Shown here one piece after another: positions 22,484 to 55,292 of a stretch of DNA of 64,000 nt. A program made the translations under genes and the position numbers. This DNA is from a virus. Taxonomy: Duplodnaviria > Caudoviricetes. The stretch lies in the IMG/VR virus record IMGVR_UViG_3300031853_000038, positions 601 through 64,600 of that record, one strand, 5' to 3'. How positions within the stretch are numbered: position 1 is the first letter of the stretch; the number at the start of each line of letters is the position of its first letter. A model generated the notes under the pieces. The model saw only the letters and a list, made by a program, of their open reading frames with translations, made no database searches and had not been told where the DNA came from.

Positions 22484-22807
22484 ATGAAAAAATTAAAAAG
22501 TTCAAAACTAAAAGAATATAGTAAACGCTGTATTGCGGCAATCATCACATTATGGTTTGTTGTAGCTCTTTTTGGTATAGGTTTTAATATATATCAACTA
22601 ACTCATACAACAACACCAGAAGCAATAAATTTAGATGCTCTTTATGGGTATGTTGGTTTACCAATGACTGGCGGAATAGTTGGTTATCTAGTTAAATCTG
22701 CTATGGAGAATAAAGAAAAAATTAAAGGTAATATTACTTCTAATGAGGAAATATTATCACAAGTTTATACTTCAGAGGAGGAAACAGATAATGGCAGCGA
22801 TCAATAA
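22484..22807 (+). CDS. Two-TM membrane protein (holin/antiholin-like)
   Basis: Two hydrophobic segments, basic N-terminus, acidic C-terminus. Confidence 0.5.
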   Translation: MKKLKSSKLKEYSKRCIAAIITLWFVVALFGIGFNIYQLTHTTTPEAINLDALYGYVGLPMTGGIVGYLVKSAMENKEKIKGNITSNEEILSQVYTSEEETDNGSDQ

Positions 22808-24260: not shown

Positions 24261-24303
24261 TATTATGATTATACTCCATCTAATAATTAAGGAGGCTAAA
24301 TAA

Positions 24304-24531
24304 ATGAAAATAAATTGGAAAGAAAAACTTTCTTCTCGTAAATTTTGGGCTTTAGTGGCAGCACTTGTATTATCTGTTTTAGTCTTTTTTAATGCAAGCG
24401 ACAATACTGCCACTCAAGTAGGCTCAATTATAACTGCCTTTGGTAGCGTATGTGTTTATACTCTTGCAGAGGCTAGTGTAGACAAAAAACGGTTAGAAGA
24501 AAATTCAGAAACTTATTATGAAGAAGAATAA
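24304..24531 (+). CDS. Holin
   Basis: MKINWKEKLSSRKFWALVAAL..., two TM helices, typical Firmicutes phage holin N-terminus. Confidence 0.75.
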   Translation: MKINWKEKLSSRKFWALVAALVLSVLVFFNASDNTATQVGSIITAFGSVCVYTLAEASVDKKRLEENSETYYEEE

Positions 24532-24561
24532 TACAAAATATATATAAAGGAGGAATTATAT

Positions 24562-24744
24562 ATGCAATTAATACAAAAAGGAAATACTCCTAATACTCCA
24601 ATTGAAACTTGGATTTGTGATACAGAGCAAGAAGTTAGTTCAATTCCTTCTAAAGCACCAATCGGCTCAATAGCAATCGTTTTAACAGATAATGGTATGA
24701 TTATTAAGATGAAAAATAATGTTGGCGATTGGGTTGAGCTGTAA
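24562..24744 (+). CDS. Small tail-module protein (60 aa), paralog of 22297..22473
   Basis: Shared xxCDxxxxxxxI...G.lAiV...N..G.W.EL pattern; directly precedes DGR target 1. Confidence 0.65.
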   Translation: MQLIQKGNTPNTPIETWICDTEQEVSSIPSKAPIGSIAIVLTDNGMIIKMKNNVGDWVEL

Positions 24745-24756
24745 GGTGGTGAGATT

Positions 24757-26775
24757 ATGGATGTATCAACTCTTGCAGTTGCATTAGGATATACTAAAAA
24801 ACAGGTAGAGCAAGCAAAAAGAGAAGGATTTAGAGTTCAAATAGAACAAGATAGAAGTATATTAGAGACTACTGGTGAAGAGAAAATCTTTTATTTTCTA
24901 CCTAAAAATCCACAAAAAACTAAAGATGGATATGATGAATTTGTTTATACAAATAATAATTGGGAGCAGGTAGGAGTAACCGATATAGATTTAACCGACT
25001 ATGCTCAAAAAACATGGGTAAATGATAAATTTATAGAGAATGAAGAAATTTTTATTGGTGACGACGCCCCAGAGGGAAAACAAGTTCTTTGGATAGATGA
25101 AGATGCTGATAATATTAGATATGGTGCGGCATTAGATGTTACAGATTCTATATTAAGTTTAATAGATCAGAATGGTACTCTATTAAGTCAAGTAGATATA
25201 AGTGGTAGAATGGATATAGATGGTGGCACTGTAACTATTGATTATAATAGTTTTACATATGATGGTACAGCAAAAGAGCCTATTGTTACTAGTGTTGTAT
25301 TAGATAGTACTACATTAGTTTATGAAGAAGATTATACTATAAGTAGTTATTCTGCTACAAACGCTGGAAGTTATTCTTTAAAAATTTATGGAATTAATGA
25401 TTATAAAGGTATGATAGAAGTTAATTGGACAATAACTAAAGCTAATCCAACAATTACTGGACCATCAACTATAACCGTTGATACATTAAATGAAACAAAA
25501 GAAGTAGCTTTTACTTCTAATAGTGGCGGTTATTTTAGTTTTAGTGTTGAAAATACTTCTTTAGCTACAGTTTCAAACAATAGTGGTACTGTTTCTATAA
25601 CTTCTGTTGCAAAAGGAGAAACAAATCTTATTGTAAATGTAGCTGAAACTTTAAATTATAACTCCAAACAAGTACTAATTCCTTTAACAATTTTAGATGG
25701 TATGTGTTTCGGAGTAATCTGGAATTATGGCGATAGCTCTCCAGTATTAACTCGTCTTACTAGAGAAAATGATCCTAATCATATAGTAACTCATAGCCCA
25801 ACGATTGAACCAACCGCTTGTATTGGAACTACCGCTGGTCAGTCTTGGTTTGATGATTATATGCCTTGGGCTGGGATGGTTAGAAAAAATTATGTTGACG
25901 GACAAATAGTTAACTTCGTAGATTATTCAAATGGAGAAACTTACGTATACATACCACAATTTTGGAGTAAAATTATAAATAATACAGAAGAAAGTAAGAT
26001 GTATATTTATATATCTGCTGTTCAAGACTCTAGACTTACATTACACCCTGGTAGTGGAAAATATATGAGTCGTTATGAATGTAATAGTAACTTTTTATCT
26101 GCACCAGGCACTGCTCCAAAAGTTAATACTAACTTAGGTGGATTTAGAACTGGTATTACTGCAATTGACAATAAGCATTATCAGTATGATATACATACTT
26201 ATGCAGCTTTAGAACTATTATATATAGTAGAATTTGCACATTTAAATACACAAAGTAAAATTGGTGCAGGTATTACCTCTGGTGGTGCAGCTTTAACTAT
26301 TGGCGAAACGGATATTCTTACTTATCATACTGGTAGAGTGGATGGAACTGCTGATAATGTAAGTGCTGTACAATATAGATGGATAGAAAACTTATGGGGT
26401 AATGTATGGAATTGGGTTGATGGAATATTAATACAAGATGGATTAGTTTATATTTGTAATGATAGAGCAAATTATGCTAGTTCAATAACAAATGATTATG
26501 AGAGTACTGGTTTATATACACCAACTAATAGTAACTGGCATAAAACCGACCAAGATTATAATAATTGTTATTTAATTCCACTAACCACTGGTAGTTCTGA
26601 TTCTACTTACACTTGCGACTACTATTATTATGGCTCCGGGCTTCGTGGCTTGCATGTTGGTGGCAGCTATGGTAGCGGCTCTAATGCGGGCTTGTTCTCT
26701 TGGTTTGGTTACTATGCTCCAGGCGTTACCTTTGCTTATGTCGGTGGGCGCGCTGTGTTAGTAGATAACGAATAA
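24757..26775 (+). CDS. DGR target protein 1 (Ig-like domains + C-terminal C-type-lectin-like domain with VR); probable tail receptor-binding protein
   Basis: ENLWGNVWNWVDG CLec-type motif; VR at the extreme C-terminus. Confidence 0.9.
   Translation: MDVSTLAVALGYTKKQVEQAKREGFRVQIEQDRSILETTGEEKIFYFLPKNPQKTKDGYDEFVYTNNNWEQVGVTDIDLTDYAQKTWVNDKFIENEEIFIGDDAPEGKQVLWIDEDADNIRYGAALDVTDSILSLIDQNGTLLSQVDISGRMDIDGGTVTIDYNSFTYDGTAKEPIVTSVVLDSTTLVYEEDYTISSYSATNAGSYSLKIYGINDYKGMIEVNWTITKANPTITGPSTITVDTLNETKEVAFTSNSGGYFSFSVENTSLATVSNNSGTVSITSVAKGETNLIVNVAETLNYNSKQVLIPLTILDGMCFGVIWNYGDSSPVLTRLTRENDPNHIVTHSPTIEPTACIGTTAGQSWFDDYMPWAGMVRKNYVDGQIVNFVDYSNGETYVYIPQFWSKIINNTEESKMYIYISAVQDSRLTLHPGSGKYMSRYECNSNFLSAPGTAPKVNTNLGGFRTGITAIDNKHYQYDIHTYAALELLYIVEFAHLNTQSKIGAGITSGGAALTIGETDILTYHTGRVDGTADNVSAVQYRWIENLWGNVWNWVDGILIQDGLVYICNDRANYASSITNDYESTGLYTPTNSNWHKTDQDYNNCYLIPLTTGSSDSTYTCDYYYYGSGLRGLHVGGSYGSGSNAGLFSWFGYYAPGVTFAYVGGRAVLVDNE
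26629..26760 (+). repeat. DGR variable repeat VR1
   Basis: 132 nt; 24 mismatches to TR, all at TR adenines. Confidence 0.97.
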
Positions 26776-26789
26776 TTTAATTTTGTTTT

Positions 26790-26810
26790 TAAGCACTTAA
26801 TCTCAGTGCT
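26790..26810 (+). other. Hairpin downstream of VR1 (DGR target-recognition hairpin candidate)
   Basis: AAGCACT-taatctc-AGTGCTT about 30 nt after the IMH region. Confidence 0.45.
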
Positions 26811-26839
26811 TTATATATAAAGGTTCTTTTATAGGTAAT

Positions 26840-26971
26840 TATAGCTCCGGGCTTCGTAGCTTGAATGTTGGTAGCAACTATAGTAACAGCTCTAATGCAG
26901 GATTGTTCTATTGGAATGGTAACAATGATCCAGGCAATACCAATGCTAATATCGGTGAGCACGCTGTGTTA
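26840..26971 (+). repeat. DGR template repeat (TR)
   Basis: AAC/AAT/AGC-rich copy of both VRs, immediately upstream of the RT; ends GCTGTGTTA then diverges (IMH* ATTT versus IMH GTAG). Confidence 0.97.
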
Positions 26972-27107
26972 ATTTATTCGCGCATACTTATCTATATTAG
27001 AGCCGTACCTCTTGGTAAAAACTGCGGTCGCGACGGAATTAGTGTAGGTTTTTAGAAATTCGAAAGTTCTAGACTGCCTTTGAGATTAACACATTCAGGA
27101 GGTAAGT

Positions 27108-28187
27108 ATGTCTAAGAAAATTGGATATATTTATAATAAGATGCTTACTAAAGAAGCTATTGAAAGTGCTTTAATACGAGCATCTAAACATAAAAAGAAA
27201 AGACGACAAGTGCGTAAGGCATTAGAAAATAAAGAACAAACTATTAAAGATATACAGAAAATTTTATTAGATGAAAGTTTTGTTCCACAAGCGCCTTTTG
27301 AAAAAACCATTTGGGATACTTCTAGTGGAAAAGAAAGACACGTAGCTTATGTACGTTTCTTCCCAGATGCAATAATACACACACTTATCGTAGAAAGATT
27401 AGAAGAAATTTTTAGCCCGCGGTTTGATCCTCATAGTTGCTCTGCCATTCCTAAACGAGGTGGTGCCGCGGCAAAGAAATATGTAGAGAAAGCAATACAA
27501 GAAGATCCAGAACATACAAAATATTGTTTAAAACTAGATATTTCAAAATACTTCCAAAGTATTGATAAAGATGTATTGATGAAACAATTACATCACATTA
27601 TAAAAGACAAACGTTTTTTAAAAATATGTAGTGATATTATTAACAGTTATATAGAAAATCCAGAACAACCCGAAAAAGGAATAGCTATTGGCTTCTTTCC
27701 ATCTCAATGGTTTGGGAATTCTTATTTAACTGATTTAGATAGATATATTCGTACTTTAAAAGGAGTACATTATTATTGCAGATATATGGATGATATGGTT
27801 TTATTTAGTGACAATAAAGAAGATTTACATCAAGCTAAAGAATTAATAGAAAATTTTTTGAATAGTTTTTTAAAACTAAAATTAAAATCAAATTATCAAC
27901 TTTTTCCAATAGATAAAAGACCACTGGATTTTGTTGGTTATATATTTTATAGAGAATATATTATTTTACGTCGGAAAACCGCAAATAAAACAATAAAACA
28001 AAGTAGACGCATTTATAAAATGCAAAAAAATAATAATCCTATTGACTTCCATAACGCTAGTGGATTTTTATCTCGTTCTGGACAGTGTAAACATTTTAAT
28101 AGTAGATTATTTAGTAAACGTTATGTTAATAATATAAATTTAGAAAATTTAAAAGGAGTGGTAAAAAATGAAGGCTTGCGCAAATGA
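27108..28187 (+). CDS. DGR reverse transcriptase
   Basis: KLDISKYFQSID, GIAIGFFPSQWFGNSYL (DGR-type SQ), YMDD, LDFVGY; no maturase/endonuclease domain. Confidence 0.97.
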   Translation: MSKKIGYIYNKMLTKEAIESALIRASKHKKKRRQVRKALENKEQTIKDIQKILLDESFVPQAPFEKTIWDTSSGKERHVAYVRFFPDAIIHTLIVERLEEIFSPRFDPHSCSAIPKRGGAAAKKYVEKAIQEDPEHTKYCLKLDISKYFQSIDKDVLMKQLHHIIKDKRFLKICSDIINSYIENPEQPEKGIAIGFFPSQWFGNSYLTDLDRYIRTLKGVHYYCRYMDDMVLFSDNKEDLHQAKELIENFLNSFLKLKLKSNYQLFPIDKRPLDFVGYIFYREYIILRRKTANKTIKQSRRIYKMQKNNNPIDFHNASGFLSRSGQCKHFNSRLFSKRYVNNINLENLKGVVKNEGLRK

Positions 28188-28482
28188 TAAACCAAATGTT
28201 TTTACTTTTGAAAAATATCCTCGCGGTGGATATATATTATGGTTAAGAGAAAATTTTCATAAAATTGAAAAAGAAGAGCCAGATTCTCAAGATAGCTGGA
28301 TTTATGATGAATATACAATTTTAATACCACAATATTTAACTAATAATTTTATTGAACAACATTTTGAAGAATATTTAGAAAACGCAAGAAGAGAAGAAGC
28401 TTCAAATCCAATTGATAGATTAAGCTCCGCCGAAGATGCAATTCAAGATATTCTTGAAATATTAGCTGAAATAACTGGTTAA
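28168..28482 (+). CDS. Small acidic protein, likely tail-fibre-associated; not Avd-like
   Basis: Overlaps the RT stop; LRENF...WIYDEY pattern and C-terminal coiled segment. Confidence 0.55.
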   Translation: MKACANDKPNVFTFEKYPRGGYILWLRENFHKIEKEEPDSQDSWIYDEYTILIPQYLTNNFIEQHFEEYLENARREEASNPIDRLSSAEDAIQDILEILAEITG

Positions 28483-28494
28483 GGTGGTGTTAAA

Positions 28495-29985
28495 ATGCCA
28501 AGAATTAAATATAAAAATAGTCAAGGAAGTTGGGTAGATCTTGGTTTTACTGCTGGAAAAGATGGAAAAAGCGTAATAAGCGCTGAAATTAATGACGGCG
28601 GAGAATTAATACTTACATTAACAGATGGAAGTACAATTAATGCCGGAATAGTTAGAAATAATACTACAAATATTAAAGGTGGAACTTTAATTTTAGATTA
28701 TAGTGAATTTGATTATGATGGAACCAGTAAATTTCCTACAGTAGTTTCTTTTACTGTGCAAGGAAAAACTTTAGTTCAAAATGAGGATTTTTTAATTATT
28801 GGTCAGCCGCAATCTAATATAGGTGAGTATAGTTTTGTAATTTATGGTATTAATAAATACGGCGGTTCACTTGAGATTGAATGGTCTATAGTACAACCAA
28901 GTTTTACCTGTTTTGGAGTAGTTTGGAATTATGGAACTTCTTCTCCTGCATTAGTTAGGCTAACAGCTGAAAGTGACCCTAATGGATATGTTACAAATAG
29001 TCCAAATACAGAGCCAACCGCTTGTATTGGTAGTACCGAAGGCTCCTCTGTTTTTGACGGATATATGCCCTGGGCTGGTATAGAGAGAAAAAACTATACA
29101 AATGAGGGGCTAGTTGATTTTACTGGATATGATAACGGAGAAACTTATGTTTATATCCCTAAATTTTATTCTAAAATTGTAAATGATACGGAAAAAAGTA
29201 AAATGTATTTTTATATTGCCTCTAATCCTGTTCAAGGATTTACGTTACATAAAGGCAGCGGACGATACGTAGCTCGTTATCAGTGTAATAACGAATTTAA
29301 GTCGGCCCCTGGTACAAACCCAAAGGTCAACACAAATTTAACCAGTTTTAGAAATGGAATTACCGCGATTGATAACTATCATTTTCAATATGATATACAT
29401 ACTTATAATGCTTTACAGTTATTATATATTGTAGAATGGGCAAATCTAAATACTCAAAGTATGATTGGTGCTGGTATTACTTCTGGTTCAGTACAAACAT
29501 TAGGACAAACCGATATTCTAACTTATCATACTGGTAGAGTTAGTGGTACAGATAATGTTAGCGCTGTACAGTATAGATGGATTGAAAATCCTTGGGGTAA
29601 TGTATGGGATTGGATTGATGGTATTCTAATTCAAGATGGTAAAGTTTATATTTGTAATGATGAAACATTATATGCTAGTTCTATTACAAATAGTTATAAC
29701 GATACCGGTATAGTAACACCAACAAGTGGCTCTGGTTGGCTTAAAACCGAAAGTGATTATAATAACCAATATATTTTTCCAAAAACTGTCGGTGGTTCTG
29801 ATTCCACATATTTATGTGATAATTCATGGTTTAGCTCCGGGCTTCGTGGCTTGTTTGTTGGTGGCGGCTTTAGTAACGGCTCTTATGCGGGCTTGTTCTA
29901 TTGGAATGGTAGCGCTGATCCGGGCGATGCCTATGCTGCTATCGGTGGGCGCGCTGTGTTAGTAGGTTTAGAGGAAAATAATTAA
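28495..29985 (+). CDS. DGR target protein 2 (Ig-like + CLec-like domain with VR)
   Basis: C-terminal ~350 aa clearly paralogous to target 1 (CFGVVWNYG...ENPWGNVWDWIDG); VR at C-terminus. Confidence 0.9.
   Translation: MPRIKYKNSQGSWVDLGFTAGKDGKSVISAEINDGGELILTLTDGSTINAGIVRNNTTNIKGGTLILDYSEFDYDGTSKFPTVVSFTVQGKTLVQNEDFLIIGQPQSNIGEYSFVIYGINKYGGSLEIEWSIVQPSFTCFGVVWNYGTSSPALVRLTAESDPNGYVTNSPNTEPTACIGSTEGSSVFDGYMPWAGIERKNYTNEGLVDFTGYDNGETYVYIPKFYSKIVNDTEKSKMYFYIASNPVQGFTLHKGSGRYVARYQCNNEFKSAPGTNPKVNTNLTSFRNGITAIDNYHFQYDIHTYNALQLLYIVEWANLNTQSMIGAGITSGSVQTLGQTDILTYHTGRVSGTDNVSAVQYRWIENPWGNVWDWIDGILIQDGKVYICNDETLYASSITNSYNDTGIVTPTSGSGWLKTESDYNNQYIFPKTVGGSDSTYLCDNSWFSSGLRGLFVGGGFSNGSYAGLFYWNGSADPGDAYAAIGGRAVLVGLEENN
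29830..29961 (+). repeat. DGR variable repeat VR2
   Basis: 132 nt; 23 mismatches to TR, all at TR adenines. Confidence 0.97.
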
Positions 29986-37177: not shown

Positions 37178-38680
37178 ATGAATTTTAGTGAAGTTATAAA
37201 AGAAAATGCAACAAGAAAGTACACCGAAAATGGTGCGAGAGCTTATAACACAACAGGCGACAAGTTACTTGACTTGTTTTCAACTGTTGGTTCATTAAGA
37301 ACTCGCTCAGAAGAGGAAATAAGAGAGAAGTACAGATTGGCTTTCAATGAAGATCAGCTGCTTGCTACAAAATTACTATTCTATACAGGTAATATCCGTG
37401 GTGGTCTTGGCGAGAGAAGAACTTTCAGAATTTGTCTGAAGTGGCTTGCACAGGAGCATCCTGAGATTGCGGTAAAGAACATTCCTTTGGTTGCGGCGTT
37501 TAACCGTTGGGACTCACTTTTTGAGCTTATCGGCACTGATGTAGAAAACGCAATGTGGGCATATATTGCTGAAACTTTTGCAAATGATATTTCAAATCTT
37601 ACGGTGGCGAAAGTTACAAGAGCAGAGCCTCACATTTCTTTGCTTGCGAAGTGGCTTCCTTCAGAGAACGCTTCTTCAAAGAAGACTCGTAAACTTGCAA
37701 AAACTGTAATTAATAAACTTAGACTATCTCCTAAGCAGTATCGTCAAATTCTTTCTGCACTTCGCGCGCAGCTCAAAGTTGTAGAAAAGAGTATGAGTGC
37801 AAGGGAGTGGGATCAAATTGTTTACAGCGGAGTTCCTTCTTACGCTATGAAGAACTACAGAAACGCTTTTGAGCGTCATGACTCAGAACGTTTCAAGGAA
37901 TTTATTGGTGCGGTAAAGAAGGGAGAAAAGAAGATTAATGCTTCTACACTTTTCCCTTACGACCTTATTCACCAATATACAAGTTGCTCAAGCTGGGATT
38001 TCAATGTAGCAAACTACGATGAAGTTCTGGAGCAGCAATGGAAGGCTCTTCCTAATTACGTAGATGAAGGTACTGAAGTACTTGTAATGGCAGATACGTC
38101 TGGCTCAATGTTCTACGGAGATACTCGTCCTATGGAAACTTCTGTAGGTTTGGCTATTTACTTCGCACAACGTAATAAAGGAATGTATCACAATACATTT
38201 ATGACATTCAGTAGCACTCCTGCTTACTACTCAATCGATGAAGGAGCTTCTTTGAGAGATTGTATCCGGAAGGTAAGCCGTGGTCCTTGGACAGGTTCAA
38301 CAAACCTTACTGGGGCTATGAGAAAGATTCTCCACGACGCAGTTAGCAACTCTGTAGCTCCTGAGGAAATGCCTAAGGCGTTGGTAGTTATTTCTGATAT
38401 GGAAATCGATGCGGCGCAGCGTTGGGGCTCAGACAAGTGGGATTATGCAGATGCTCTTGCAGAGGAGTTCGAGAGAGCGGGCTACACAATGCCTAAGTTG
38501 ATTTTCTGGAATGTAAATTCAAGAAATGACACTTTCCTTACTAAGAACAAGAATACTCTTCTTGTTAGTGGACAGTCACCTTCTACTTTTAGAAGTGTGT
38601 TGAAGTCTATTAATAAGACAGCGTATGAAGCTATGCTGGAAGTATTGAATGATCCTATGTATGATTGCGTAAGAGTTTAA
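37178..38680 (+). CDS. DUF2828-type TROVE/Ro60-like protein with C-terminal vWA domain
   Basis: TENGARAYNTTGD.LLDLF, RGGLGERR, RWDSL, AKWLPSE, vWA DTSGSM, STNL, ISDMEID, FWNV; GC-richer codon usage than its neighbours. Confidence 0.8.
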   Translation: MNFSEVIKENATRKYTENGARAYNTTGDKLLDLFSTVGSLRTRSEEEIREKYRLAFNEDQLLATKLLFYTGNIRGGLGERRTFRICLKWLAQEHPEIAVKNIPLVAAFNRWDSLFELIGTDVENAMWAYIAETFANDISNLTVAKVTRAEPHISLLAKWLPSENASSKKTRKLAKTVINKLRLSPKQYRQILSALRAQLKVVEKSMSAREWDQIVYSGVPSYAMKNYRNAFERHDSERFKEFIGAVKKGEKKINASTLFPYDLIHQYTSCSSWDFNVANYDEVLEQQWKALPNYVDEGTEVLVMADTSGSMFYGDTRPMETSVGLAIYFAQRNKGMYHNTFMTFSSTPAYYSIDEGASLRDCIRKVSRGPWTGSTNLTGAMRKILHDAVSNSVAPEEMPKALVVISDMEIDAAQRWGSDKWDYADALAEEFERAGYTMPKLIFWNVNSRNDTFLTKNKNTLLVSGQSPSTFRSVLKSINKTAYEAMLEVLNDPMYDCVRV

Positions 38681-44936: not shown

Positions 44937-45835
44937 TTTCTGGTAGAAAATTTTCAGTTTTAACTTAAAACTTTATATCCAATTATTATTTTTCTTACTT
45001 ATATATGAAAATAATAAGAGGTGGTTTTATGAAAAAATGGGAAAATTTTTCTAAGGAAGAATTAGAACAATTTGTAAAAAACAGTTATTCCTACGCTGAA
45101 GTTTGTAAGCAATGTGGTTATTCACCAACTGGTGGTAGCTCAGTCAAATCTATAAAAGAAATGATTGAACATTATCATTTTGATATATCACACTTTACAA
45201 AACAAAGTTGGAATAAGAATAATTTTGATTATTCTCGTTTTAGAAAAGGAAACAATATTAAAAGGGGTGAAGCGGCTAAGGCGCTAACCTTTTTAAGAGG
45301 ACACCGATGTGAGAATTGTAACAATCAAGAATGGTTAGGTCAAAAAATACCACTTGAAATACACCACATTGACGGAGATAATCAAAATAATGAAATGGAT
45401 AATTTGCAACTTTTATGTCCAAATTGTCACGCTTTAACTGAAAATTGGCGTGGAAAAAATATTAATCAAGGTATTGAGAAAGTATCTGATGAAGATTTTG
45501 TTAATGCGTTAAAAAATTCACCCAATATTAGACAAGCATTGATTAAATTAGGTTTGTCACCAAAAGGTGGAAATTATGTTAGAGCAAATGAATTGATTGT
45601 AAAATATCAAATTGTTCATCTTCTGGAGCAGTAATCTTGGAAACTTATTACTGAATGATGGCTAATTCGGTGAATAACCAGAGAACGCCGAGCTAAATCA
45701 GTCAATTTAAATGGTTGTAAATGTGTAGAGACTATATACCATCTACCTAAGTCTTAAAATAAAAGATAAGGTAAAGACATAGTCCAGACTACAACGTAAT
45801 ATAATATTGCGGCTATAGTGATATAGAGTAGTAAG
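44937..45835 (+). mobile_element. Group I intron (899 nt) in the tRNA anticodon, encoding an HNH endonuclease
   Basis: P GCTAATTCGGTGAA, Q GAACGCCGAGCT, R TGTAGAGACTATA, S AAGACATAGTCC; ends in G. Confidence 0.9.
45029..45634 (+). CDS. Intron-encoded HNH homing endonuclease
   Basis: CENC...PLEIHHIDGDNQNNEMDNLQLLCPNCH; RBS GAGGTG before ATG 45029. Confidence 0.9.
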   Translation: MKKWENFSKEELEQFVKNSYSYAEVCKQCGYSPTGGSSVKSIKEMIEHYHFDISHFTKQSWNKNNFDYSRFRKGNNIKRGEAAKALTFLRGHRCENCNNQEWLGQKIPLEIHHIDGDNQNNEMDNLQLLCPNCHALTENWRGKNINQGIEKVSDEDFVNALKNSPNIRQALIKLGLSPKGGNYVRANELIVKYQIVHLLEQ

Positions 45836-47010: not shown

Positions 47011-47087
47011 GCTCAAGTGACGGAATAGGCATACGTGCTTGATTCAAAATCAAGATTTTAAGAGTTCGACTCTCTTCTTGAGTACCA
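47011..47087 (+). tRNA. tRNA-Leu(CAA), short variable loop
   Basis: CTTGA-TTCAAAA-TCAAG, CCA. Confidence 0.9.
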
Positions 47088-47980: not shown

Positions 47981-48244
47981 GTAGCGCAAGAGGATTCATA
48001 GTAGCCGGGAACGACAGCGCTATACAAGTGTCAAACGAATTACTATGAAGGGCTGGACGTAAGTCCCGGGTCCACCGAAGTAGGGGAGACTCCCCTTTTA
48101 ATAACGTTCTCAGTAGTTGTGCGCCGAGAACTTGGACAGCCGTAAAGGAAATCCCTGCAACACCAGCAAAGGGTTGGTATCGACATATGTGGCGCCCACT
48201 TTAAAAATTATACCTTTATGGTTTATAGAAAGGAATAAAATAAA

Positions 48245-48385: not shown

Positions 48386-48454
48386 TTTTTAGGCGCGCGC
48401 AGCGAGAGATAATAGTTCATATATAAAAACCTCTTTCTAAGCGTCTTGAAATAT

Positions 48455-48566
48455 AAAGCACAGGCAGCAAATACTTATCTTGTGGCGTAAAGGTTAGCGC
48501 ATCAACCTTAAAAAGTTGACGATAGCAGTTCGAATCTGCTCAAGATTGAAATATAGAAGGTGCTTT
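48455..48566 (+). ncRNA. CAGCAA-stem RNA B enclosing a tRNA-like body with an 8-nt anticodon loop
   Basis: AAAGCAC-AGGCAGCAAAT...GTGCTTT; D arm GCGT/GCGC, TCAAC-CTTAAAAA-GTTGA, AGCAG-TTCGAAT-CTGCT; no CCA. Confidence 0.65.
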
Positions 48567-48643
48567 GAATAAAAAATTTTTTGACTTTTTTATAAATTTT
48601 TAGTATAATATTTATAGAAAAATTAAGAAAGGAAAATAAATAT

Positions 48644-48715
48644 TGCGGGCTAGAGTAGTGGTTACTCAACAGTTTCATAGGCTGTGTTAGGTCGGTTCGA
48701 TTCCGACGCCCGCAA
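48644..48715 (+). tRNA. tRNA with CAT anticodon (elongator Met or Ile2); no encoded CCA
   Basis: TGCGGGC/GCCCGCA acceptor, ACAGT-TTCATAG-GCTGT; followed directly by a ribozyme. Confidence 0.85.
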
Positions 48716-48770
48716 GAGACACATCTATATAGCCTCCACGTGGCGTGTCTTGGGTAATGCTAATATATAG
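48716..48770 (+). ncRNA. Theta (minimal HDV-like) ribozyme 1
   Basis: P1 GAGACAC/GTGTCTT (G1.U), P2 CTATATA/TATATAG, P3 GCC/GGC, L3 TCCACGT, GG, J4/2 GCTAA. Confidence 0.9.
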
Positions 48771-48782
48771 AATTAAATATAT

Positions 48783-48855
48783 TCCTCAATAGCACAACTG
48801 GTAGTGCACGGCGCTGTTAACGCCGGGGTTGCAGGATCGTACCCTGCTTGAGGAG
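48783..48855 (+). tRNA. tRNA-Asn(GTT); no encoded CCA
   Basis: CGGCG-CTGTTAA-CGCCG, G73. Confidence 0.92.
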
Positions 48856-48911
48856 GATTCTCGAGTACTATACTTCCACGTAGTGAGAATTGGGTAACGC
48901 TAGATTAGTAC
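48856..48911 (+). ncRNA. Theta (minimal HDV-like) ribozyme 2
   Basis: P1 GATTCTC/GAGAATT, P2 GTACTA/TAGTAC, P3 ACT/AGT, L3 TCCACGT, GG-GTAACG-CTAG. Confidence 0.9.
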
Positions 48912-48937
48912 ATTATTATAAAGAGGAGCTGAGTTTA

Positions 48938-49588
48938 TTGGCATACATTTATAAAATAACAAATAGAATTAATGGAAAGGTTTATATTGGTCAAACAAGT
49001 TTAACTATTAAACATCGTTTACAACAGCATATCAGAGATTCTAAACGTCAAACAATGGAAAATAGACCTTTATATAGAGCTTTTAAAAAATATGGGTATA
49101 ATAATTTTATTATAGAAGAAGTTGAACAATGTAAAAATGATGAAGTAAATGAAAAAGAAAAATATTGGATAAAATATTATGATTCTTATCATAATGGATA
49201 TAATGCTACACTTGGAGGAGAAGGAAGTATAACTATTGATCGTCAATTAGTAATAAATACTTATAAAAAATTACAAACTTGCAAAGCGGTAGCAGAAGAA
49301 TTAAAAATTAATTCAGGTACAGTTAGTGATATTCTTAAAAGTCAAGGAATAGTAGTTACTTCTTCACAAGAATTAAATAGAAAAAGAAACGGAAAACCAG
49401 TAAATATAATTGATGATAATGGAAATATTTTAATAACTTTTAATACATTAAAAGATGCAGCATTATACATTCAAAAAGAAAAAAATATTACAACAGATTG
49501 TAAAGGTATTGTCTCTCATATAAGAGATGTTTGTAATAAAAAAAGAAAAACTGCTTATTCACATAAATGGAAATGGAAAGACACTTAA
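48938..49588 (+). CDS. GIY-YIG homing endonuclease with NUMOD1-like C-terminus (likely TTG start at 48938)
   Basis: AYIYKITNRINGKVYIGQT; RBS GAGGAG; the longer track start overlaps ribozyme 2. Confidence 0.9.
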   Translation: MAYIYKITNRINGKVYIGQTSLTIKHRLQQHIRDSKRQTMENRPLYRAFKKYGYNNFIIEEVEQCKNDEVNEKEKYWIKYYDSYHNGYNATLGGEGSITIDRQLVINTYKKLQTCKAVAEELKINSGTVSDILKSQGIVVTSSQELNRKRNGKPVNIIDDNGNILITFNTLKDAALYIQKEKNITTDCKGIVSHIRDVCNKKRKTAYSHKWKWKDT

Positions 49589-49611
49589 GAAAAGGAGTTG
49601 ATGTAAATAAA

Positions 49612-50169
49612 ATGAGTATTTATTTAATTTCTGATACTCATTTTGGTCACGACCGTGAATTTATTTTTCAACCTCGCGGCTTTAGAGATATTTATTCTCA
49701 CGATCAAAATATAATTCATAATTGGAATTCAGTTGTAGGTAAAAATGATACTGTGTATCATCTTGGTGATGTAATGCTTGGGGATAATGTCCACGGATTA
49801 GAGTGTTTAAAGCAATTAAACGGTCAAATTCATATTATTCGCGGCAATCACGATACGAATCCACGCTTAGCACTATATAAAGAGTGTGATAATGTAGTAG
49901 AAGTTCGTGATGCGGCTTATCTCAAATATGGGAAATATCATTTTTTCCTTACACATTATCCTTGTAATAGTGGTAGCCTTGAAAAAGATTCTTTAAAGGG
50001 TATGACTTGTAACTTTTTTGGACACACTCACCAACAAACTAATTTTTACAGAGATATTCCATATATGTATCACGTAGGTGTTGATTCACATAATTGTACT
50101 CCTGTTAATATTGATGATGCTATCAATGATATGAAGGTTAAAATTGAGGAATGTAAGAATTTTCTTTAA
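49612..50169 (+). CDS. Calcineurin-like metallophosphoesterase
   Basis: SDTHFGH, LGD, RGNHD, THYP, GHTH. Confidence 0.9.
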   Translation: MSIYLISDTHFGHDREFIFQPRGFRDIYSHDQNIIHNWNSVVGKNDTVYHLGDVMLGDNVHGLECLKQLNGQIHIIRGNHDTNPRLALYKECDNVVEVRDAAYLKYGKYHFFLTHYPCNSGSLEKDSLKGMTCNFFGHTHQQTNFYRDIPYMYHVGVDSHNCTPVNIDDAINDMKVKIEECKNFL

Positions 50170-50189
50170 AACTAATCTTCCTCATAAAT

Positions 50190-50264
50190 CGAGGTGTAGT
50201 CTAGTTCGGCTAAGGCGCGCGGTTTGGGACCGTGATATCGGGGGTTCAAATCCCTCCACTTCGA
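50190..50264 (+). tRNA. tRNA-Pro(TGG); no encoded CCA
   Basis: CGCGG-TTTGGGA-CCGTG, C1-G72, A73. Confidence 0.92.
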
Positions 50265-50320
50265 GGGTACCAGTACAGATATGTTCACGTCGTGTACCTG
50301 TTTAAAACAAGAGTCTGTGC
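50265..50320 (+). ncRNA. Theta-like ribozyme 3 (variant, 6-bp P1)
   Basis: P1 GGGTAC/GTACCT (G1.U), P2 GTACAGA/TCTGTGC, P3 ATG/CGT, L3 TTCACGT. Confidence 0.7.
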
Positions 50321-50347
50321 AATACTATAAATAGGAGCTGTTTAATT

Positions 50348-50968
50348 ATGGCATACATTTATAAAATTACTAATAAAATAAATGGAAAAATTTATATAGG
50401 AAAAACATTAAAATCTATTGAAAATAGATGGAGAGAGCATATAAAGGCTTTTGATAAAAAAGAATGTGAAAACAGACCTTTATATAGGGCTTTTAAAAAA
50501 TATGGCATTGAAAATTTTAATATAGAGGAAATTGAAAAGTGTCCAGAACGAGATGCAAGTAATAGAGAGTGCTATTGGATAGAGCAGTATGGCTCTTTTA
50601 AAAATGGTTATAATGCTACTTTAGGTGGAGATGGAAAAAGATATGCTGATTATGATTTAATTTTTAATTTATGGGAAAATGGAAATGATATAAAAACCAT
50701 TCATAAAATTACAAAATATGATGCAGATACAATACGTTCTGCTTTAGATGATAATAATATTACTTCAGAGATACGAAAGCAAAGGCAATATAAAGGTTTT
50801 TCTAAACCAGTAGCAATGTTAGATAAAGACACTAAAGAAATTTTAAAAGTTTTTTCTTCTATTTCAGAAGCATATAAATTTTTAAATAAAAATGGTGATG
50901 GTCATATTTCAAGTGTGTGTAAGGGAAAAAGAAAAACTGCTTATGGATATAGCTGGAAATTAATTTAG
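50348..50968 (+). CDS. GIY-YIG homing endonuclease, paralog of 48938..49588
   Basis: MAYIYKITNKINGKIYIGKT...GYNATLGGDG...KRKTAYGYSWK. Confidence 0.9.
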   Translation: MAYIYKITNKINGKIYIGKTLKSIENRWREHIKAFDKKECENRPLYRAFKKYGIENFNIEEIEKCPERDASNRECYWIEQYGSFKNGYNATLGGDGKRYADYDLIFNLWENGNDIKTIHKITKYDADTIRSALDDNNITSEIRKQRQYKGFSKPVAMLDKDTKEILKVFSSISEAYKFLNKNGDGHISSVCKGKRKTAYGYSWKLI

Positions 50969-50987
50969 ATAAATAAGTAAAATTATT

Positions 50988-51006
50988 AATCCCTCCACTT
51001 CGACCA
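50988..51006 (+). repeat. Direct repeat of the tRNA-Pro 3' end (AATCCCTCCACTTCGA) followed by CCA
   Basis: Identical to 50249..50264. Confidence 0.9.
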
Positions 51007-51401
51007 TATGCTGTGCTATCGGTGATACGGGCGGTTATGTTCTACATATTTTTGGAAAACGTATCCTTGGGAACGCCCTAAAATACGTCAGTATAGTCTT
51101 TTATAATAGTTTTCTAATACTGGTTGTTATATGAAAACTAATTCGCCCGTAGTTAATGGTTCAAATTCTACTAGCAAACTTCCACGATGGTGTTAGAAAA
51201 GTGGATAGAATAACGGTACCGCATACTGCAAGCGCTGTAATAGTATCCGTGGCGGATTCTCCTTTTAGCCTATGATTGAAAAAGTATTTATACTTTTTGG
51301 AAGAAGTGGTTTGGCAAGACCGTTTCTGATTTTTTCTTTGAATTGCCCCAGACGTCTTCGGACTATGGGTTAGGGAATAAGATGAGTCTTATTCCTTATA
51401 T

Positions 51402-51496
51402 GGCGTCCTAATCCTAATTGGTAAGGAAATAGTCTTGAAAACTATTAGTAGTCGCAGAGGTGCGGTGTCTCGGTTCGAGTCCGAGGGGCGTCGCCA
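51402..51496 (+). tRNA. tRNA-Ser(TGA)
   Basis: ATAGT-CTTGAAA-ACTAT, long variable arm, G73, CCA. Confidence 0.92.
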
Positions 51497-51684
51497 AGTA
51501 AGTTGGAAATTAAAAATGGGCAGCAAAAACAGAGGTAGGTAAATTTTACTGTTTTTACTTTCTGTCGGTATCTATACTGATGAAAGGGGTTTTCCTTGCC
51601 GAAGTACAAGGTGCGTATTGCCGAAAAAACCTACATTATTTTATAAATTTTGGAGATTATAAGTAAATAATTTTGGAGGTTTAT

Positions 51685-51927
51685 ATGAGTCATCGTAGAA
51701 AGATGGAAGAAAAACATAGATTAAAACATTTATATCATCAAACGCAATCTTTCTATGAAACTGGCGTCTACTATGATGAAGATAAAAAACGCTATATACG
51801 ATGGTATGCTCCAAGAAGAGCTAAATATTATCGTAGAATAAGTAATAAAAAAGTTCGTCATACAAAATATTTAGTAAATGGTAATACATATAAGAAATAT
51901 TTTGATTATTGGTGGGAACTTTATTAA
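51685..51927 (+). CDS. Small basic hypothetical protein
   Basis: RBS GGAGGT; YYRRISNKKVRH...YKKYFDYWW. Confidence 0.6.
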   Translation: MSHRRKMEEKHRLKHLYHQTQSFYETGVYYDEDKKRYIRWYAPRRAKYYRRISNKKVRHTKYLVNGNTYKKYFDYWWELY

Positions 51928-52273
51928 AATAAATATAATGACAAGAGAAACTTACTTAGGTACCCAATGAGTAAGAGAGGTTTCGCAACTCGAACGTTGT
52001 TTCCGTGTGCGGAAAATACAACAGTATCTGTATAGGAGTCATGACCTATTAAAATTCTGGCTATAAAATTTAGACAGAGAGCCAAGAAGTAGACTAAAGT
52101 CATTATGATTGGAACATTCAGCGCCACAAAGGTCTGCGGGTTTAAGCGATTGTTGTCGATAGGAATAATCGCCCTTTAAAAGTGGAAAGGATAACTTTTA
52201 CGTTCTCTTACGTATGGAGCGGCGAGTGGTATTCGTCGATAACTTTGCGCTAAATAATACCCTACAGTCATCT

Positions 52274-52349
52274 GGCTCGTTAGTTAAGTTGGTCACAACG
52301 CTGGATTCTCAGTCCAGAGGCAAGAGTTCGAATCTCTTACGAGTTACCA
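52274..52349 (+). tRNA. tRNA-Glu(CTC)
   Basis: CTGGA-TTCTCAG-TCCAG, CCA. Confidence 0.92.
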
Positions 52350-52572
52350 CTGGCAAGGTGGCGCTTAACGGTCAAAGTTTGGCGGTATCTTTAAAAACCG
52401 CTATATAGGGTAAGGCAAATTTGTAAGTGTGATTCCTGATTAGGTATTTTATTATAATACCTAAAGGAAAATAGGGTTTTGCCAATATCGAATAGAAAGA
52501 GGTTGATTTCGATATAGTAGCTGGTCAGAGGAGAGTGCAGAAAGCTACTTAAAAACACGAGGTTACTCCATT

Positions 52573-52609
52573 TAGACACATACAGCAACTTATATTAATG
52601 TGGTGTTTA
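52573..52609 (+). ncRNA. CAGCAA-stem RNA C (minimal)
   Basis: TAGACAC-ATACAGCAAC...GTGTTTA. Confidence 0.5.
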
Positions 52610-52840
52610 GAAATGAAAAGAAAGGGAAAGAATATATGAAAAAAATATCAGAGATAGCAAAAGAAATGTCTTCCTTCATTGATTCTATAAGTTTATATCT
52701 TACAGATAGTGAGCTAGCCCAAGCTGCAATAATTGAACGAGATTTACATCATTATGCTAATCTTAACGAATAAAATTTTTGACTTTTTTATAAATTTTTA
52801 GTATAATATATATAGAAAAGTTAAGAAAGAAAAAGAAAAT

Positions 52841-52959
52841 AAAGCACAGACAGCAAAGATTATTTTATAACGATTTTGGAACTTGAAGTAGTGGGTTCGA
52901 GTCCCACCCCAAATGAATGGGTAGCTCAACAGGCAGAGCGCAAGTAGTTATAGTGCTTT
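52841..52959 (+). ncRNA. CAGCAA-stem RNA D: YrlA-like Y RNA with a circularly permuted tRNA domain
   Basis: AAAGCAC/GTGCTTT, TATAAC/GTTATA, ACTTG/CAAGT, then T arm GTGGG-TTCGAGT-CCCAC, loop-closed acceptor CCCA-AATGAA-TGGG, D arm TA-GCTC-AACAGGCA-GAGC. Confidence 0.75.
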
Positions 52960-53027
52960 GTGTAATTGGAAAAACAAAAATTCCAGCAATCAACAAATGT
53001 GTGGTTAGCTGACCTTAAAGCCTATTC

Positions 53028-53102
53028 GGTCGTATAGTTCAATAGTTAGAATAGTGCCCTGTCACGGCACAGACGAGGGAGCATAACCCTCTATGACCGC
53101 CA
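53028..53102 (+). tRNA. tRNA-Asp(GTC), atypical T loop AGCATAA
   Basis: GTGCC-CTGTCAC-GGCAC, G73, CCA. Confidence 0.88.
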
Positions 53103-53332
53103 ACGCTTAGTAGCACAATGCGTTCAATCGTTAGTGGTTTCGGATTATCAACCACCCAATACCCAAAGGATAACTGTTGCTACGCAGAAACACTCAGGGC
53201 TTTATTCAACAATAAATTTGTGAGTTGTAAGTTGAATAAGAGTATTGATATTAAACTCTCGCCGCTAGCTCATGCGGGATATAAACGAGGATGCCGGAGC
53301 CACTGGACTAACGAGATAAATTCCAGTTATAT

Positions 53333-53408
53333 ACAGATGTAGCACAGTAGGTTAGTGCGCATGACTGATAATCGTATTACAGAAGTTCGAATCTTCTCGT
53401 CTGTACCA
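53333..53408 (+). tRNA. tRNA-Ile(GAT)
   Basis: CATGA-CTGATAA-TCGTA, A73, CCA. Confidence 0.88.
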
Positions 53409-53412
53409 TATA

Positions 53413-53477
53413 AAGACACAGACAGCAATTATAATTTAGGAATAAACTTTTAATTTATAACCCTGAACTTGTGTCTT
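53413..53477 (+). ncRNA. CAGCAA-stem RNA E with an isolated Lys(TTT)-like anticodon stem-loop
   Basis: AAGACAC-AGACAGCAAT...AGG-ATAAA-CTTTTAA-TTTAT-CCT...GTGTCTT. Confidence 0.6.
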
Positions 53478-53493
53478 GTACCTTGATAATTTA

Positions 53494-54075
53494 ATAAGTG
53501 CTTTGACAATTTACAACCCAGTGCTAAAACAAGAATGCTCTGTTCTTGCTGGGGTACGACGAAATGGTCAGCGCAACGAAAGATGGATACATCTGGATAG
53601 CGGAATATCCAACTGTTTTAAAGTAGAGATACTTTAAAAGAAGGACGAACTCCAACACCAAAGTCGTAGCACACTTATTGTCGCAAGTAAAGGTAGGATG
53701 CGCATCGCTAGCGTAATAGACGCTTCAGATGGAGAAAAATCTTAGTTAGGTTCAGCTTGGTAACTGAACAAACCTAAGAAAAACCAATAAGCTAGTTTGC
53801 CGTGAAACGAAGAAATTCGTGTATAAGATGTGTATGCAACTCCGAGTAGGTAAAGGCAATGCAAATTGGATTTGAGGATTATAGTTAAAAATAATTTGCT
53901 GAATAGATGCTGAAAGGTACGGGTAGTCAATCCCGTATAGGTTAGTTTTTCGGAAACAGGGATAAGAAGTATAGAGGTCGCTACTTTATGCTCAGCCTTA
54001 TTCTTCCTATTGACTGAATATGCTTGAAGATAGTAAGATGTAGAATGAAGGTTCGTAAATTGTCAAAGCACTTAT
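53494..54075 (+). ncRNA. Large structured ncRNA, 582 nt (ROOL-like by size and context)
   Basis: Perfect 21-bp terminal inverted repeat ATAAGTGCTTTGACAATTTAC/GTAAATTGTCAAAGCACTTAT; many internal hairpins; no good ORF; inside a phage tRNA array. Confidence 0.65.
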
Positions 54076-54098
54076 AACTTATATATTAAATAAAAGAG

Positions 54099-54386
54099 GT
54101 GTTATTATTGTTATCTGAAGAAAAAATTTTAGATATTATCAAAGCGGTTAGAGAAAATCCTTTTTTAGATCGATATAAAGGACTTTTAAAAAGTCAGCCT
54201 CATCTTAATGTTGCTTTAGAAAATAACAAACTTAAATTATGCTCTATTAAATTTTTAGGGTATGATAAAATTATGATTACACCTCTTGGAATTACTTTTA
54301 TTCCATATCATTCTTCTGAACAAAAAGAAAAGCTTTTGGCTTCTATAGATTGGGAAGATTTATGTCAAAAATTAGGAATAGATTAA
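54099..54386 (+). CDS. Hypothetical protein
   Basis: ORF track; RBS AAGAGG. Confidence 0.45.
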   Translation: MLLLLSEEKILDIIKAVRENPFLDRYKGLLKSQPHLNVALENNKLKLCSIKFLGYDKIMITPLGITFIPYHSSEQKEKLLASIDWEDLCQKLGID

Positions 54387-54390
54387 ATAT

Positions 54391-54465
54391 GCGCGTGTAG
54401 CAAAGCGGTTATGCACACGACTTTTAATCGTGTTTAGGTGGGTCCGACTCCCACTACGCGCACCA
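54391..54465 (+). tRNA. tRNA-Lys(TTT)
   Basis: CACGA-CTTTTAA-TCGTG, CCA. Confidence 0.93.
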
Positions 54466-54532
54466 CAATTAAAATTTTTTGACTTTTTTATAAATTTTTA
54501 GTATAATATATATAGAAAAGTTAAGAAAGATA

Positions 54533-54568
54533 AAGATACTTGCAACATACCAATAAATAAAGTGTCTT
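54533..54568 (+). ncRNA. Degenerate CAGCAA-stem element F
   Basis: AAGATAC-TTGCAAC...GTGTCTT directly after a promoter repeat, the same position as element D. Confidence 0.35.
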
Positions 54569-54574
54569 GTATAT

Positions 54575-54646
54575 GGGGCTGTGGCGCAACGGGAGCGTAT
54601 CTGATTTGCATTCAGAGGGTTGTGGGTTCAAATCCCATCAGTTCCA
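54575..54646 (+). tRNA. tRNA-Ala(TGC); no encoded CCA
   Basis: G3.U70, TCTGA-TTTGCAT-TCAGA, A73. Confidence 0.93.
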
Positions 54647-54701
54647 GTCGTTCTAACTGTAAGCCTCCACGTGGCGAACGATGGGTAATGCTAATTACAG
54701 T
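54647..54701 (+). ncRNA. Theta (minimal HDV-like) ribozyme 4
   Basis: P1 GTCGTTC/GAACGAT (G1.U), P2 ACTGTAA/TTACAGT, P3 GCC/GGC, L3 TCCACGT, GG-GTAATG-CTAA. Confidence 0.92.
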
Positions 54702-54734: not shown

Positions 54735-55118
54735 ATGGCTCGTTTTCTTTGCTATGCAACAGAAAATAAATACGGCGGTCTTCACGGTATAGAAAATACT
54801 TTTATAACAGAAGCTGAGGATATTGAAGAGGCTCAGAGTGAATGTTTTGAAGCTAGCATTGAACTTATGGGTTCTTATGGAGATATAGAAGAAGAGCTTT
54901 GGGAAGAAGCTAAATTTCATCTTAGTGATGAAGAAGCAGAAGACCAAGACAAACTTGATGAAGCTTTTTGGGAATGTCAATGTGAGAACGCTTGCGCTCA
55001 AGTTTGGGAAGTAGATGAAAAGAAAGCGGGAAACCTTTCTACTTATGAACTTGATACAATAGCTTGTAACGAGGGATACGAAACTTTCCTTGAAGAGTAT
55101 TGCATTCAAGAAGATTAA
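54735..55118 (+). CDS. Highly acidic hypothetical protein (likely start ATG 54735)
   Basis: Glu/Asp-rich; RBS GAAGGA; the track start overlaps ribozyme 4. Confidence 0.6.
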   Translation: MARFLCYATENKYGGLHGIENTFITEAEDIEEAQSECFEASIELMGSYGDIEEELWEEAKFHLSDEEAEDQDKLDEAFWECQCENACAQVWEVDEKKAGNLSTYELDTIACNEGYETFLEEYCIQED

Positions 55119-55201: not shown

Positions 55202-55292
55202 AAGGCTCACACAGCAAAGATTTTTTATGGTTTAAATGATACTCTGCAAAAGTGTTGTGAAAAGGTTCGATTCCTTTAAAATTATGAGCCTT
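55202..55292 (+). ncRNA. CAGCAA-stem RNA G enclosing a degenerate tRNA-Cys(GCA)-like body
   Basis: AAGGCTCA-CACAGCAAA...TGAGCCTT; ATACT-CTGCAAA-AGTGT; AAAGG-TTCGATT-CCTTT; AT-only acceptor-like stem, no CCA. Confidence 0.65.

Follow-up and report, generated by a model that had tools for sequence, protein, structure and literature searches.

Theta-type ribozymes predicted at the 3′ ends of CCA-less tRNAs in a bovine-gut phage and their linkage to GIY-YIG homing endonuclease genes

The window analyzed here, a stretch of 64,000 nucleotides (nt) from the Caudoviricetes phage record IMGVR_UViG_3300031853_000038 of IMG/VR, makes up nearly all of a 64.6-kb single-contig assembly of a partial phage genome. 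Its region between 46 and 58 kb is an RNA island with 22 tRNAs, a ROOL RNA, a DUF3800-XI motif, and a YrlA-like element. An earlier reading of the sequence alone (the original prediction) had placed four theta ribozymes, minimal self-cleaving ribozymes resembling that of hepatitis delta virus (HDV), in this island, directly behind the tRNAs that lack an encoded CCA. We followed this up with the window, about 150 IMG/VR loci, and two metagenome runs, and found that ribozymes of this kind are linked to genes for GIY-YIG homing endonucleases at the 3′ ends of tRNA genes, both in the window and in other phage contigs. The coordinates of the features are collected in Table 1.

ARAGORN called 22 tRNAs, the number originally predicted, all on the + strand. 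Their ends, when read, gave 17 tRNAs that encode CCA and five that do not, which corrects the earlier count of 18 encoding ones. Four of the five are the ordinary tRNA-Met(CAT), tRNA-Asn(GTT), tRNA-Pro(TGG), and tRNA-Ala(TGC), each followed by one of the predicted ribozymes, which we call Rz1 to Rz4 in this order. The claim that ribozymes stand behind exactly the CCA-less tRNAs thus holds for these four, but not for the fifth CCA-less element, which has no ribozyme behind it. This element is enclosed by an 8-bp outer stem, the whole spanning 48454-48567 (+), and is probably the tRNA-like module of a larger RNA rather than a working tRNA; the span resembles a Y-RNA-like stem bearing a tRNA mimic. 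A ribozyme was associated with 4/5 of the CCA-less and 0/17 of the CCA-encoding tRNAs (Fisher p = 7e-4), or with 4/4 versus 0/17 when the tRNA-like element was dropped (p = 2e-4), so that the link between a missing CCA and a ribozyme is not a matter of chance.

The position and the general fold of the four elements turned out as predicted. By the Rfam tRNA model, the last tRNA bases are 48715, 48855, 50264, and 54646, and the folds start at the very next bases (48716, 48856, 50265, and 54647), leaving no spacer after the discriminator base (N73). The G.U first pair of P1 is present in all four, L3 reads TCCACGT in three and TTCACGT in one, and P1, P2, and P3 are fully paired in sequences that differ among the four copies, in line with the predicted covariation. 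A C, whose catalytic role is putative, lies at the expected first base of J4/2, eight bases past P1′, in each of them (positions in Table 1). The cleavage site of the tRNA-associated subgroup of theta ribozymes falls within 5 nt on either side of the tRNA 3′ end, usually of a tRNA without CCA; here, the offset was 0 nt and the tRNA CCA-less in all four cases. The published segmentation of the family is P1(7)/J1/2/P2(7)/P3(3)/T/CC/ACGT/P3′/P1′/GG/GTAAYG/CTAA/P2′ (PMC10879173). Rz1 and Rz4 fit it exactly, and Rz2 deviates by CTAG in J4/2 and by a bulge in P2.

For the family search, we used a covariance model (CM) independent of the window: 72 IMG/VR stretches with the conserved core were fetched and parsed, 40 distinct ones were aligned, and the window was searched with filters off. 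In the reference set of 40, all P1, P3, and P1.1 cells were paired, and six of the seven P1 pairs showed compensatory changes. The model matched Rz1, Rz2, and Rz4 (Table 1), with a next-best match of 10.2 bits (128 kb searched), whereas Rz3 yielded a partial match only. RF02682, the nearest Rfam family, gave sub-threshold matches at the same three start bases as the CM. None of the four elements reached an Rfam gathering threshold (RF02682, at most 34.0 bits versus 44; RF00622, 13.7 bits versus 35 for Rz3), and searching the four elements against Rfam 15 retrieved no theta family. Nested-only minimum free energy folding, a method blind to pseudoknots, gave z-scores of −0.8 to +0.7. In the RNA runs X19 and X21, the cover over the ribozymes was near zero and is thus uninformative on cleavage or expression. 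By sequence, structure, and position, Rz1, Rz2, and Rz4 are therefore theta ribozymes, whereas Rz3 is not canonical and is plausible only as a variant subtype.

The core of Rz3 reads GT, TTAAAA (L4), and CAAGA (J4/2) in place of the conserved GG, GTAAYG, and CTAA, and its P1.1 consists of one G-C pair plus U.U instead of the 2 bp of canonical theta ribozymes. The theta CM gave no full-length match to it, only a partial one of 5.6 bits, and the CPEB3 ribozyme (RF00622) was its best Rfam match. When IMG/VR was searched from the endonuclease side, the same core type was found between a tRNA N73 and a homologous endonuclease gene at four loci (L090, L091, L094, and L155); a fifth, L095, shows covariation of P1.1 in a TGC/GC version of the core, and L090 and L091 differ by a compensatory change in P1. 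We define this variant subtype by L3 T-[T/G]-C-R-C-G-Y, G-[T/C] after P1, and an A/T-rich L4. A contig of the metagenome run X3 carries Rz3 with the CAAGA junction kept, L4 shorter by one A, and a G-to-A change in P2 that turns U.G into U-A. The exact Rz3 core was found in IMG/VR only as two coincidences within coding sequences. Because the variant core occurs in at least five other phage contigs, the helices are paired, and a related strain keeps the core, we take Rz3 to belong to a recurring subtype that the published motif does not cover rather than to be debris, with its activity being predicted. A relaxed descriptor pointed to a further HDV-like candidate at L079 (374-426, +; L3 TTCTCGT, CCAA junction), with a GIY-YIG gene some 800 nt downstream; this candidate may represent either another variant or a false positive.

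Two of the four ribozymes are followed by homing endonuclease genes (HEGs), Rz2 by HEG1 and Rz3 by HEG2, which are paralogous (41% identity) and have similar leaders. Rz4 is followed by a ribosome-binding site and an open reading frame (ORF; 54735-55118) without a family match. The 16 nt at the end of tRNA-Pro (50249-50264) occur a second time in the window, and between the two copies lie only Rz3 and the GIY-YIG gene; we read the right copy, with the CCA behind it, as the remnant of the original CCA-encoding end of tRNA-Pro. A contig of the metagenome run X2 joins 50248 to 50988 (16 ambiguous bases, with 50249-50987 skipped), so that tRNA-Pro runs straight into CCA, without ribozyme or endonuclease. 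The X3 contig, on the other hand, has the ribozyme without the endonuclease.

Table 1 Ribozymes, CCA-less tRNAs, endonuclease genes, and promoters in the window (positions are those of the window)
Feature	Position	Strand	Details
Rz1, canonical theta ribozyme	48716..48770	+	P1 7 bp, P2 7 bp, P3 3 bp; L3 TCCACGT; GG, GTAATG, CTAA; putative catalytic C 48760; CM 66.2 bits, E 1.7e-14; RF02682 32.4 bits
Rz2, near-canonical theta ribozyme	48856..48911	+	J4/2 CTAG; P2 6 bp, or 7 bp with one bulge; putative catalytic C 48900; CM 53.0 bits, E 3e-11; RF02682 24.5 bits
Rz3, variant minimal HDV-like ribozyme (predicted)	50265..50320	+	P1 6 bp, P2 8 bp, P3 3 bp; L3 TTCACGT; candidate catalytic C 50308
Rz4, canonical theta ribozyme	54647..54701	+	putative catalytic C 54691; CM 62.1 bits; RF02682 34.0 bits
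tRNA-Met(CAT), Met/Ile2 type	48644..48715	+	no encoded CCA; N73 = A at 48715; Rfam tRNA 49.3 bits
tRNA-Asn(GTT)	48783..48855	+	no encoded CCA; N73 = G
tRNA-Pro(TGG)	50190..50264	+	no CCA at its own end; last 16 nt = left repeat copy
tRNA-Ala(TGC)	54575..54646	+	no encoded CCA; N73 = A
Fifth CCA-less tRNA-like element	48476..48548	+	8-nt anticodon loop (ARAGORN anticodon ‘taaa’); U:U at 1:72; no ribozyme behind
HEG1, GIY-YIG homing endonuclease (PF01541)	48938..49588	+	TTG start; ribosome-binding site directly 3′ of Rz2
HEG2, GIY-YIG + NUMOD1 homing endonuclease	50348..50968	+	downstream of Rz3
Right copy of the 16-nt tRNA-Pro 3′ end, then CCA	50988..51006	+	16-nt match 50988-51003
Promoter, near-consensus sigma-70 type	48581..48609	+	upstream of tRNA-Met/Rz1/tRNA-Asn/Rz2/HEG1; 11/12 hexamer matches, 17-nt spacer
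Promoter copies identical to 48581-48609	52779..52807 and 54479..54507	+	latter precedes tRNA-Ala/Rz4

The same linkage was seen across IMG/VR. An endonuclease homologue starts 1 to 66 nt past P2, on the same strand, in 17 of the 71 theta ribozymes for which downstream sequence was available, compared with 0/69 for the upstream controls (p = 5e-6). At seven of the 17 loci, the stop codon of the endonuclease gene is followed immediately by 12 to 17 nt that repeat the tRNA 3′ end up to precisely N73, with CCA coming next in three. The state of the endonuclease gene behind theta ribozymes varied: some copies were intact, that of L067 had an internal deletion, that of L014 retained only the last 34 codons, and at L023, L046, and L071 an identical ribozyme stood without the gene; one and the same ribozyme occurs with an intact gene, with an internally deleted one, and with none. 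Homing endonuclease genes usually go through such a series from intact through deleted to absent. From the endonuclease side, we surveyed the best 80 homologues, 36 of which had a tRNA called just upstream; a ribozyme stood behind 0/15 of the CCA-encoding and 10/21 of the CCA-less tRNAs (p = 0.002). The in-frame stops in the ribozyme-linked GIY-YIG genes of L017, L049, and L054 are all TAG, and L054 also has a tRNA with a CTA anticodon; given both, these copies are probably intact in TAG-recoded phages, and the endonuclease seems to have become suited to phages that reassign TAG.

We consider it quite probable that all four elements belong to the theta kind of minimal HDV-like self-cleaving ribozymes, three canonical and one variant, fused to N73, and that the ribozyme leads a mobile cassette of ribozyme and GIY-YIG gene lying between N73 and the former CCA. 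This location would explain why only CCA-less tRNAs carry ribozymes, a match for which the original prediction had offered no reason. Transcription of the units of tRNA, ribozyme, and, where present, endonuclease would start at the three identical promoters or reach the units by read-through. HDV-like ribozymes cut on the 5′ side of G1, leaving a 2′,3′-cyclic phosphate upstream and a 5′-OH downstream. Folded as a nested double pseudoknot, each ribozyme would make this cut and set the tRNA end at N73 with a cyclic phosphate, and the downstream RNA would begin with the ribozyme and a 5′-OH. RNase P would make the 5′ end of the tRNA; its 3′ end would be healed and CCA added by a nucleotidyltransferase, probably the host's since none is encoded on the partial contig. 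At the DNA level, the cassette would insert at N73 and displace the CCA. The ribozyme would then uncouple the tRNA from the endonuclease mRNA, so that the insertion costs the tRNA little, and the endonuclease mRNA, having no promoter of its own, would be released with its 5′ end formed by the folded ribozyme. Rz2 and Rz3 still lead intact endonuclease genes; Rz1 and Rz4 are solo ribozymes and would be cassettes that lost their endonuclease. Self-cleavage of the four elements, healing of the cyclic phosphate, and active homing are steps that we infer. A phosphoesterase gene within the tRNA array (49567-50169) gave weak YfcE/aq_1665-type matches only, and to name its product as the healing enzyme would be speculation, as nothing ties it to that step. 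Beyond the window, the balance tips slightly toward theta ribozymes being the RNA module of a widespread mobile element that, together with a GIY-YIG homing endonuclease, would invade tRNA genes at the discriminator base, with the ribozyme remaking the tRNA 3′ end and freeing the endonuclease mRNA.

Several observations weigh against this proposal. The empty-site allele is a single contig from a single run, and a deletion between the 16-nt repeats would yield the same joint. Behind Rz1, Rz2, and Rz4, neither a tRNA 3′-end repeat nor a remnant of the endonuclease was found, so that for these three we infer the origin in a cassette. Among the 80 endonuclease loci, 64 have no ribozyme and 15 adjoin CCA-encoding tRNAs; with most of the endonuclease clade being ribozyme-free, the endonuclease may, in some lineages, have been a later addition to existing tRNA-ribozyme units. 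Rz3 departs from canonical theta ribozymes at about eight positions that are invariant in them. No CCA-adding enzyme, DRB0094-type RNA ligase, or clear end-healing enzyme was found among the 40 ORFs, although such an absence means little in a 64.6-kb fragment. Some of these points would be expected if the ribozymes were a device for tRNA 3′ processing only, as published, and the GIY-YIG genes were independent, freestanding endonucleases that favor tRNA 3′ flanks and landed by two ribozymes by chance. Such endonucleases would account for the 15 clade loci behind CCA-encoding tRNAs as well as 11 behind CCA-less tRNAs without a ribozyme, for identical tRNA-ribozyme pairs with and without an endonuclease, and for the lack of any endonuclease trace at Rz1 and Rz4. 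However, the X2 allele lacks both ribozyme and endonuclease and has tRNA-Pro-CCA restored, the repeats, which stop precisely at N73 both in the window and at seven IMG/VR loci, bracket the two as a unit, and the ribosome-binding site of the endonuclease follows P2 within 1 to 66 nt with no promoter of its own; we thus regard independent landing as unlikely. It is also possible, if rather doubtful, that Rz3 is a decayed, inactive relic. RNase Z is the usual 3′-end route for CCA-less tRNAs in Bacillota, and the host enzyme would then make the 3′ end of tRNA-Pro. The partial CM match, the one-pair P1.1, the altered L4 and J4/2, and the absence of the exact core elsewhere in IMG/VR would fit decay. 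On the other hand, full pairing of P1, P2, and P3 is unexpected under neutral decay, the candidate catalytic C is at the expected spacing, the design of L3 and P1.1 recurs in the CPEB3 consensus and in five phage loci with covarying helices, and in the related strain of X3, the core is kept and the change in P2 improves pairing.

The genetic code offers another explanation, namely, that the ribozymes time the release of particular tRNAs in a code switch. This hypothesis was put forward in the 2024 paper, which found theta ribozymes to be enriched beside suppressor tRNAs of code-15 phages (PMC10879173). For the contig of the window, it is very improbable and close to refuted: ARAGORN found no CTA, TTA, or TCA anticodon, and the four partner tRNAs are ordinary sense tRNAs. 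Moreover, ORFs of at least 100 amino acids cover 74.4% under code 11, and read-through of TAG or TGA adds 3.7 to 4.2 points with the maximum ORF no longer. The original prediction had presented a standard-code segment without a suppressor tRNA as unusual. The code and the lack of a suppressor anticodon stand, but they are ordinary for the family: of the genomes with tRNA-associated theta ribozymes, 53% plus 6% are recoded and about 41% use the standard code, and of the theta-associated tRNAs, 20% are suppressors and 4.5% encode CCA (PMC10879173). That the elements resemble ribozymes by chance can practically be dismissed, with three matches of 53 to 66 bits against a 10-bit background, all located at N73+1 of CCA-less tRNAs (Fisher p < 1e-3).

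The rest of the island holds further structured RNAs. A full-length ROOL RNA (53493-54073, +; 324.7 bits) lies within the phage tRNA island, and its region 53657-54050 is overlapped by metatranscriptome contigs from two studies. The DUF3800-XI motif (48049-48095, +; 49.4 bits, above threshold) lies between tRNA-Phe and the tRNA-like element. A YrlA (Y RNA-like) match at 52863-52970 (+) is sub-threshold (34.5 bits versus 69) and lies downstream of the promoter copy at 52779-52807; a DUF2828 and DUF7788 protein encoded at 37178-38680 (+) might partner this YrlA-like RNA. Just 3′ of the tRNA-Pro remnant, 51025-51259 (+) has the top depth in RNA-library contigs (52.8 and 173) and may be an abundant small RNA; terminator-like hairpins are found at 51245-51257 and 51302-51327. 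The tRNA called Leu(CAA) (47011-47087, +) measures 77 nt including CCA, the size of a class I tRNA, and lacks the long variable arm that a bacterial tRNA-Leu would be expected to have. A tRNA-like match near threshold (27.6 bits versus 29) lies at 55219-55284 (+), just 3′ of tRNA-His. Just upstream of the tRNA island, a group I intron match (45606-45805, +; 55.6 bits) overlaps the 3′ end of an HNH endonuclease ORF (45005-45634).

Outside the island, the window encodes phage-type replication proteins (Pol III alpha, DnaB, primase, gyrase, NrdD, RNase H, and ligase). A GIY-YIG gene (19269-20222) separates the two pieces in which gyrase B is encoded (20241-21509 and 18502-19122, −), and other GIY-YIG genes lie amid the replication genes at 6519-7385 and 10912-11661. 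A reverse transcriptase gene (27108-28187) lies near a BspA-type leucine-rich repeat protein gene and two large ORFs without a family match (22743-29985, +), a layout that looks like a diversity-generating retroelement. The CHAP and GH25 lysins encoded in the window suggest a Gram-positive host. The DNA of the window recurs across many bovine-gut metagenome studies; among GenBank phages, megablast found no match to the tRNA island. A distant search with tRNA-Pro plus Rz3 returned unrelated tRNA-Pro genes only, and the sole relative reached via the phosphoesterase gene (L001) has no tRNAs nearby.

The ribozyme family itself is already published; what appears to be new, as far as the sequences go, is its link to an endonuclease cassette and the variant core. 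Full-text literature searches returned no paper tying HDV-like or theta ribozymes to homing endonucleases at tRNA genes, with coverage being incomplete and a prior description possible. A bovine-gut, probably Gram-positive-infecting, standard-code phage is by itself a modest addition to a family published in 2024. The cassette link, however, would provide a concrete, testable reason for the CCA-less partners, the promiscuity in tRNA partners, and the many isolated copies, and would point to a natural case of a small ribozyme rendering a selfish DNA insertion harmless. It would likewise explain why one ribozyme sequence stands behind many tRNA isotypes and why solo ribozymes, as cassette relics, are common. 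The CPEB3-like variant evades the published search motif, which suggests a wider space of active-looking minimal HDV-like cores, and published ribozyme counts are therefore probably underestimates.

T4 seg-type genes are freestanding GIY-YIG homing endonucleases, and HEG1 and HEG2 share with such phage endonucleases the GIY-YIG and NUMOD1 architecture; unlike them, the copies led by a ribozyme are joined to the transcription unit of a tRNA and lack their own promoter. The published theta ribozymes (Kienbeck et al. 2024, PMC10879173) are identical in architecture and core to Rz1 and Rz4 and nearly so to Rz2; the published set comprises 1,753 tRNA-associated and 7,704 isolated ribozymes. They also agree in the cleavage site abutting the tRNA 3′ end, in the CCA-less tRNAs, with tRNA-Met(CAT) among the partners, and in their occurrence in Caudoviricetes phages of animal guts, here bovine. 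Rz3, in contrast, lies outside the published motif, its TTCACGT having no occurrence in the available supplementary tables, and the paper with these supplements makes no mention of homing endonucleases, GIY-YIG, mobility, target repeats, RNase Z, or a cyclic-phosphate end. The variant instead resembles the mammalian CPEB3 ribozyme (RF00622), with the same L3 (UUCACGU) and a G-U after P1 that leads to a one-pair P1.1. CPEB3 differs in having a full P4 helix and in being intronic and mammalian, and we take this as a likeness of design that implies no descent.

Group I introns with homing endonucleases, found in phage genes and bacterial tRNA genes, follow a similar logic, in that a ribozyme neutralizes the insertion in RNA and an endonuclease spreads the DNA (available part of PMC3984707); by comparison with what is described there, the cassette would do so without splicing or exon ligation. 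The closest functional parallel that we found in the sources at hand is R2. In R2 and other non-long terminal repeat retrotransposons, a 5′ HDV-like ribozyme frees the element from the rRNA co-transcript, and the cut of some R2 ribozymes coincides with the insertion boundary (Eickbush and Eickbush 2010, as cited in PMC11331408); the folded ribozyme may also protect the new 5′ end (PMC11331408, in the portion available). As described in that portion, R2 is likewise a mobile element in a structural-RNA gene, co-transcribed with it and bearing an HDV-like ribozyme at its own 5′ boundary. However, R2 spreads through reverse transcription into eukaryotic rDNA, with the copy of the host gene being disrupted, whereas here, a homing-endonuclease cassette would act at the DNA level in phage tRNA genes, and the cut would make a usable end for the host RNA. 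If this is true, such cassettes would represent a third ribozyme-assisted way to hide a mobile element in a structural-RNA gene, after the group I intron with its endonuclease and R2 with its HDV-like ribozyme.

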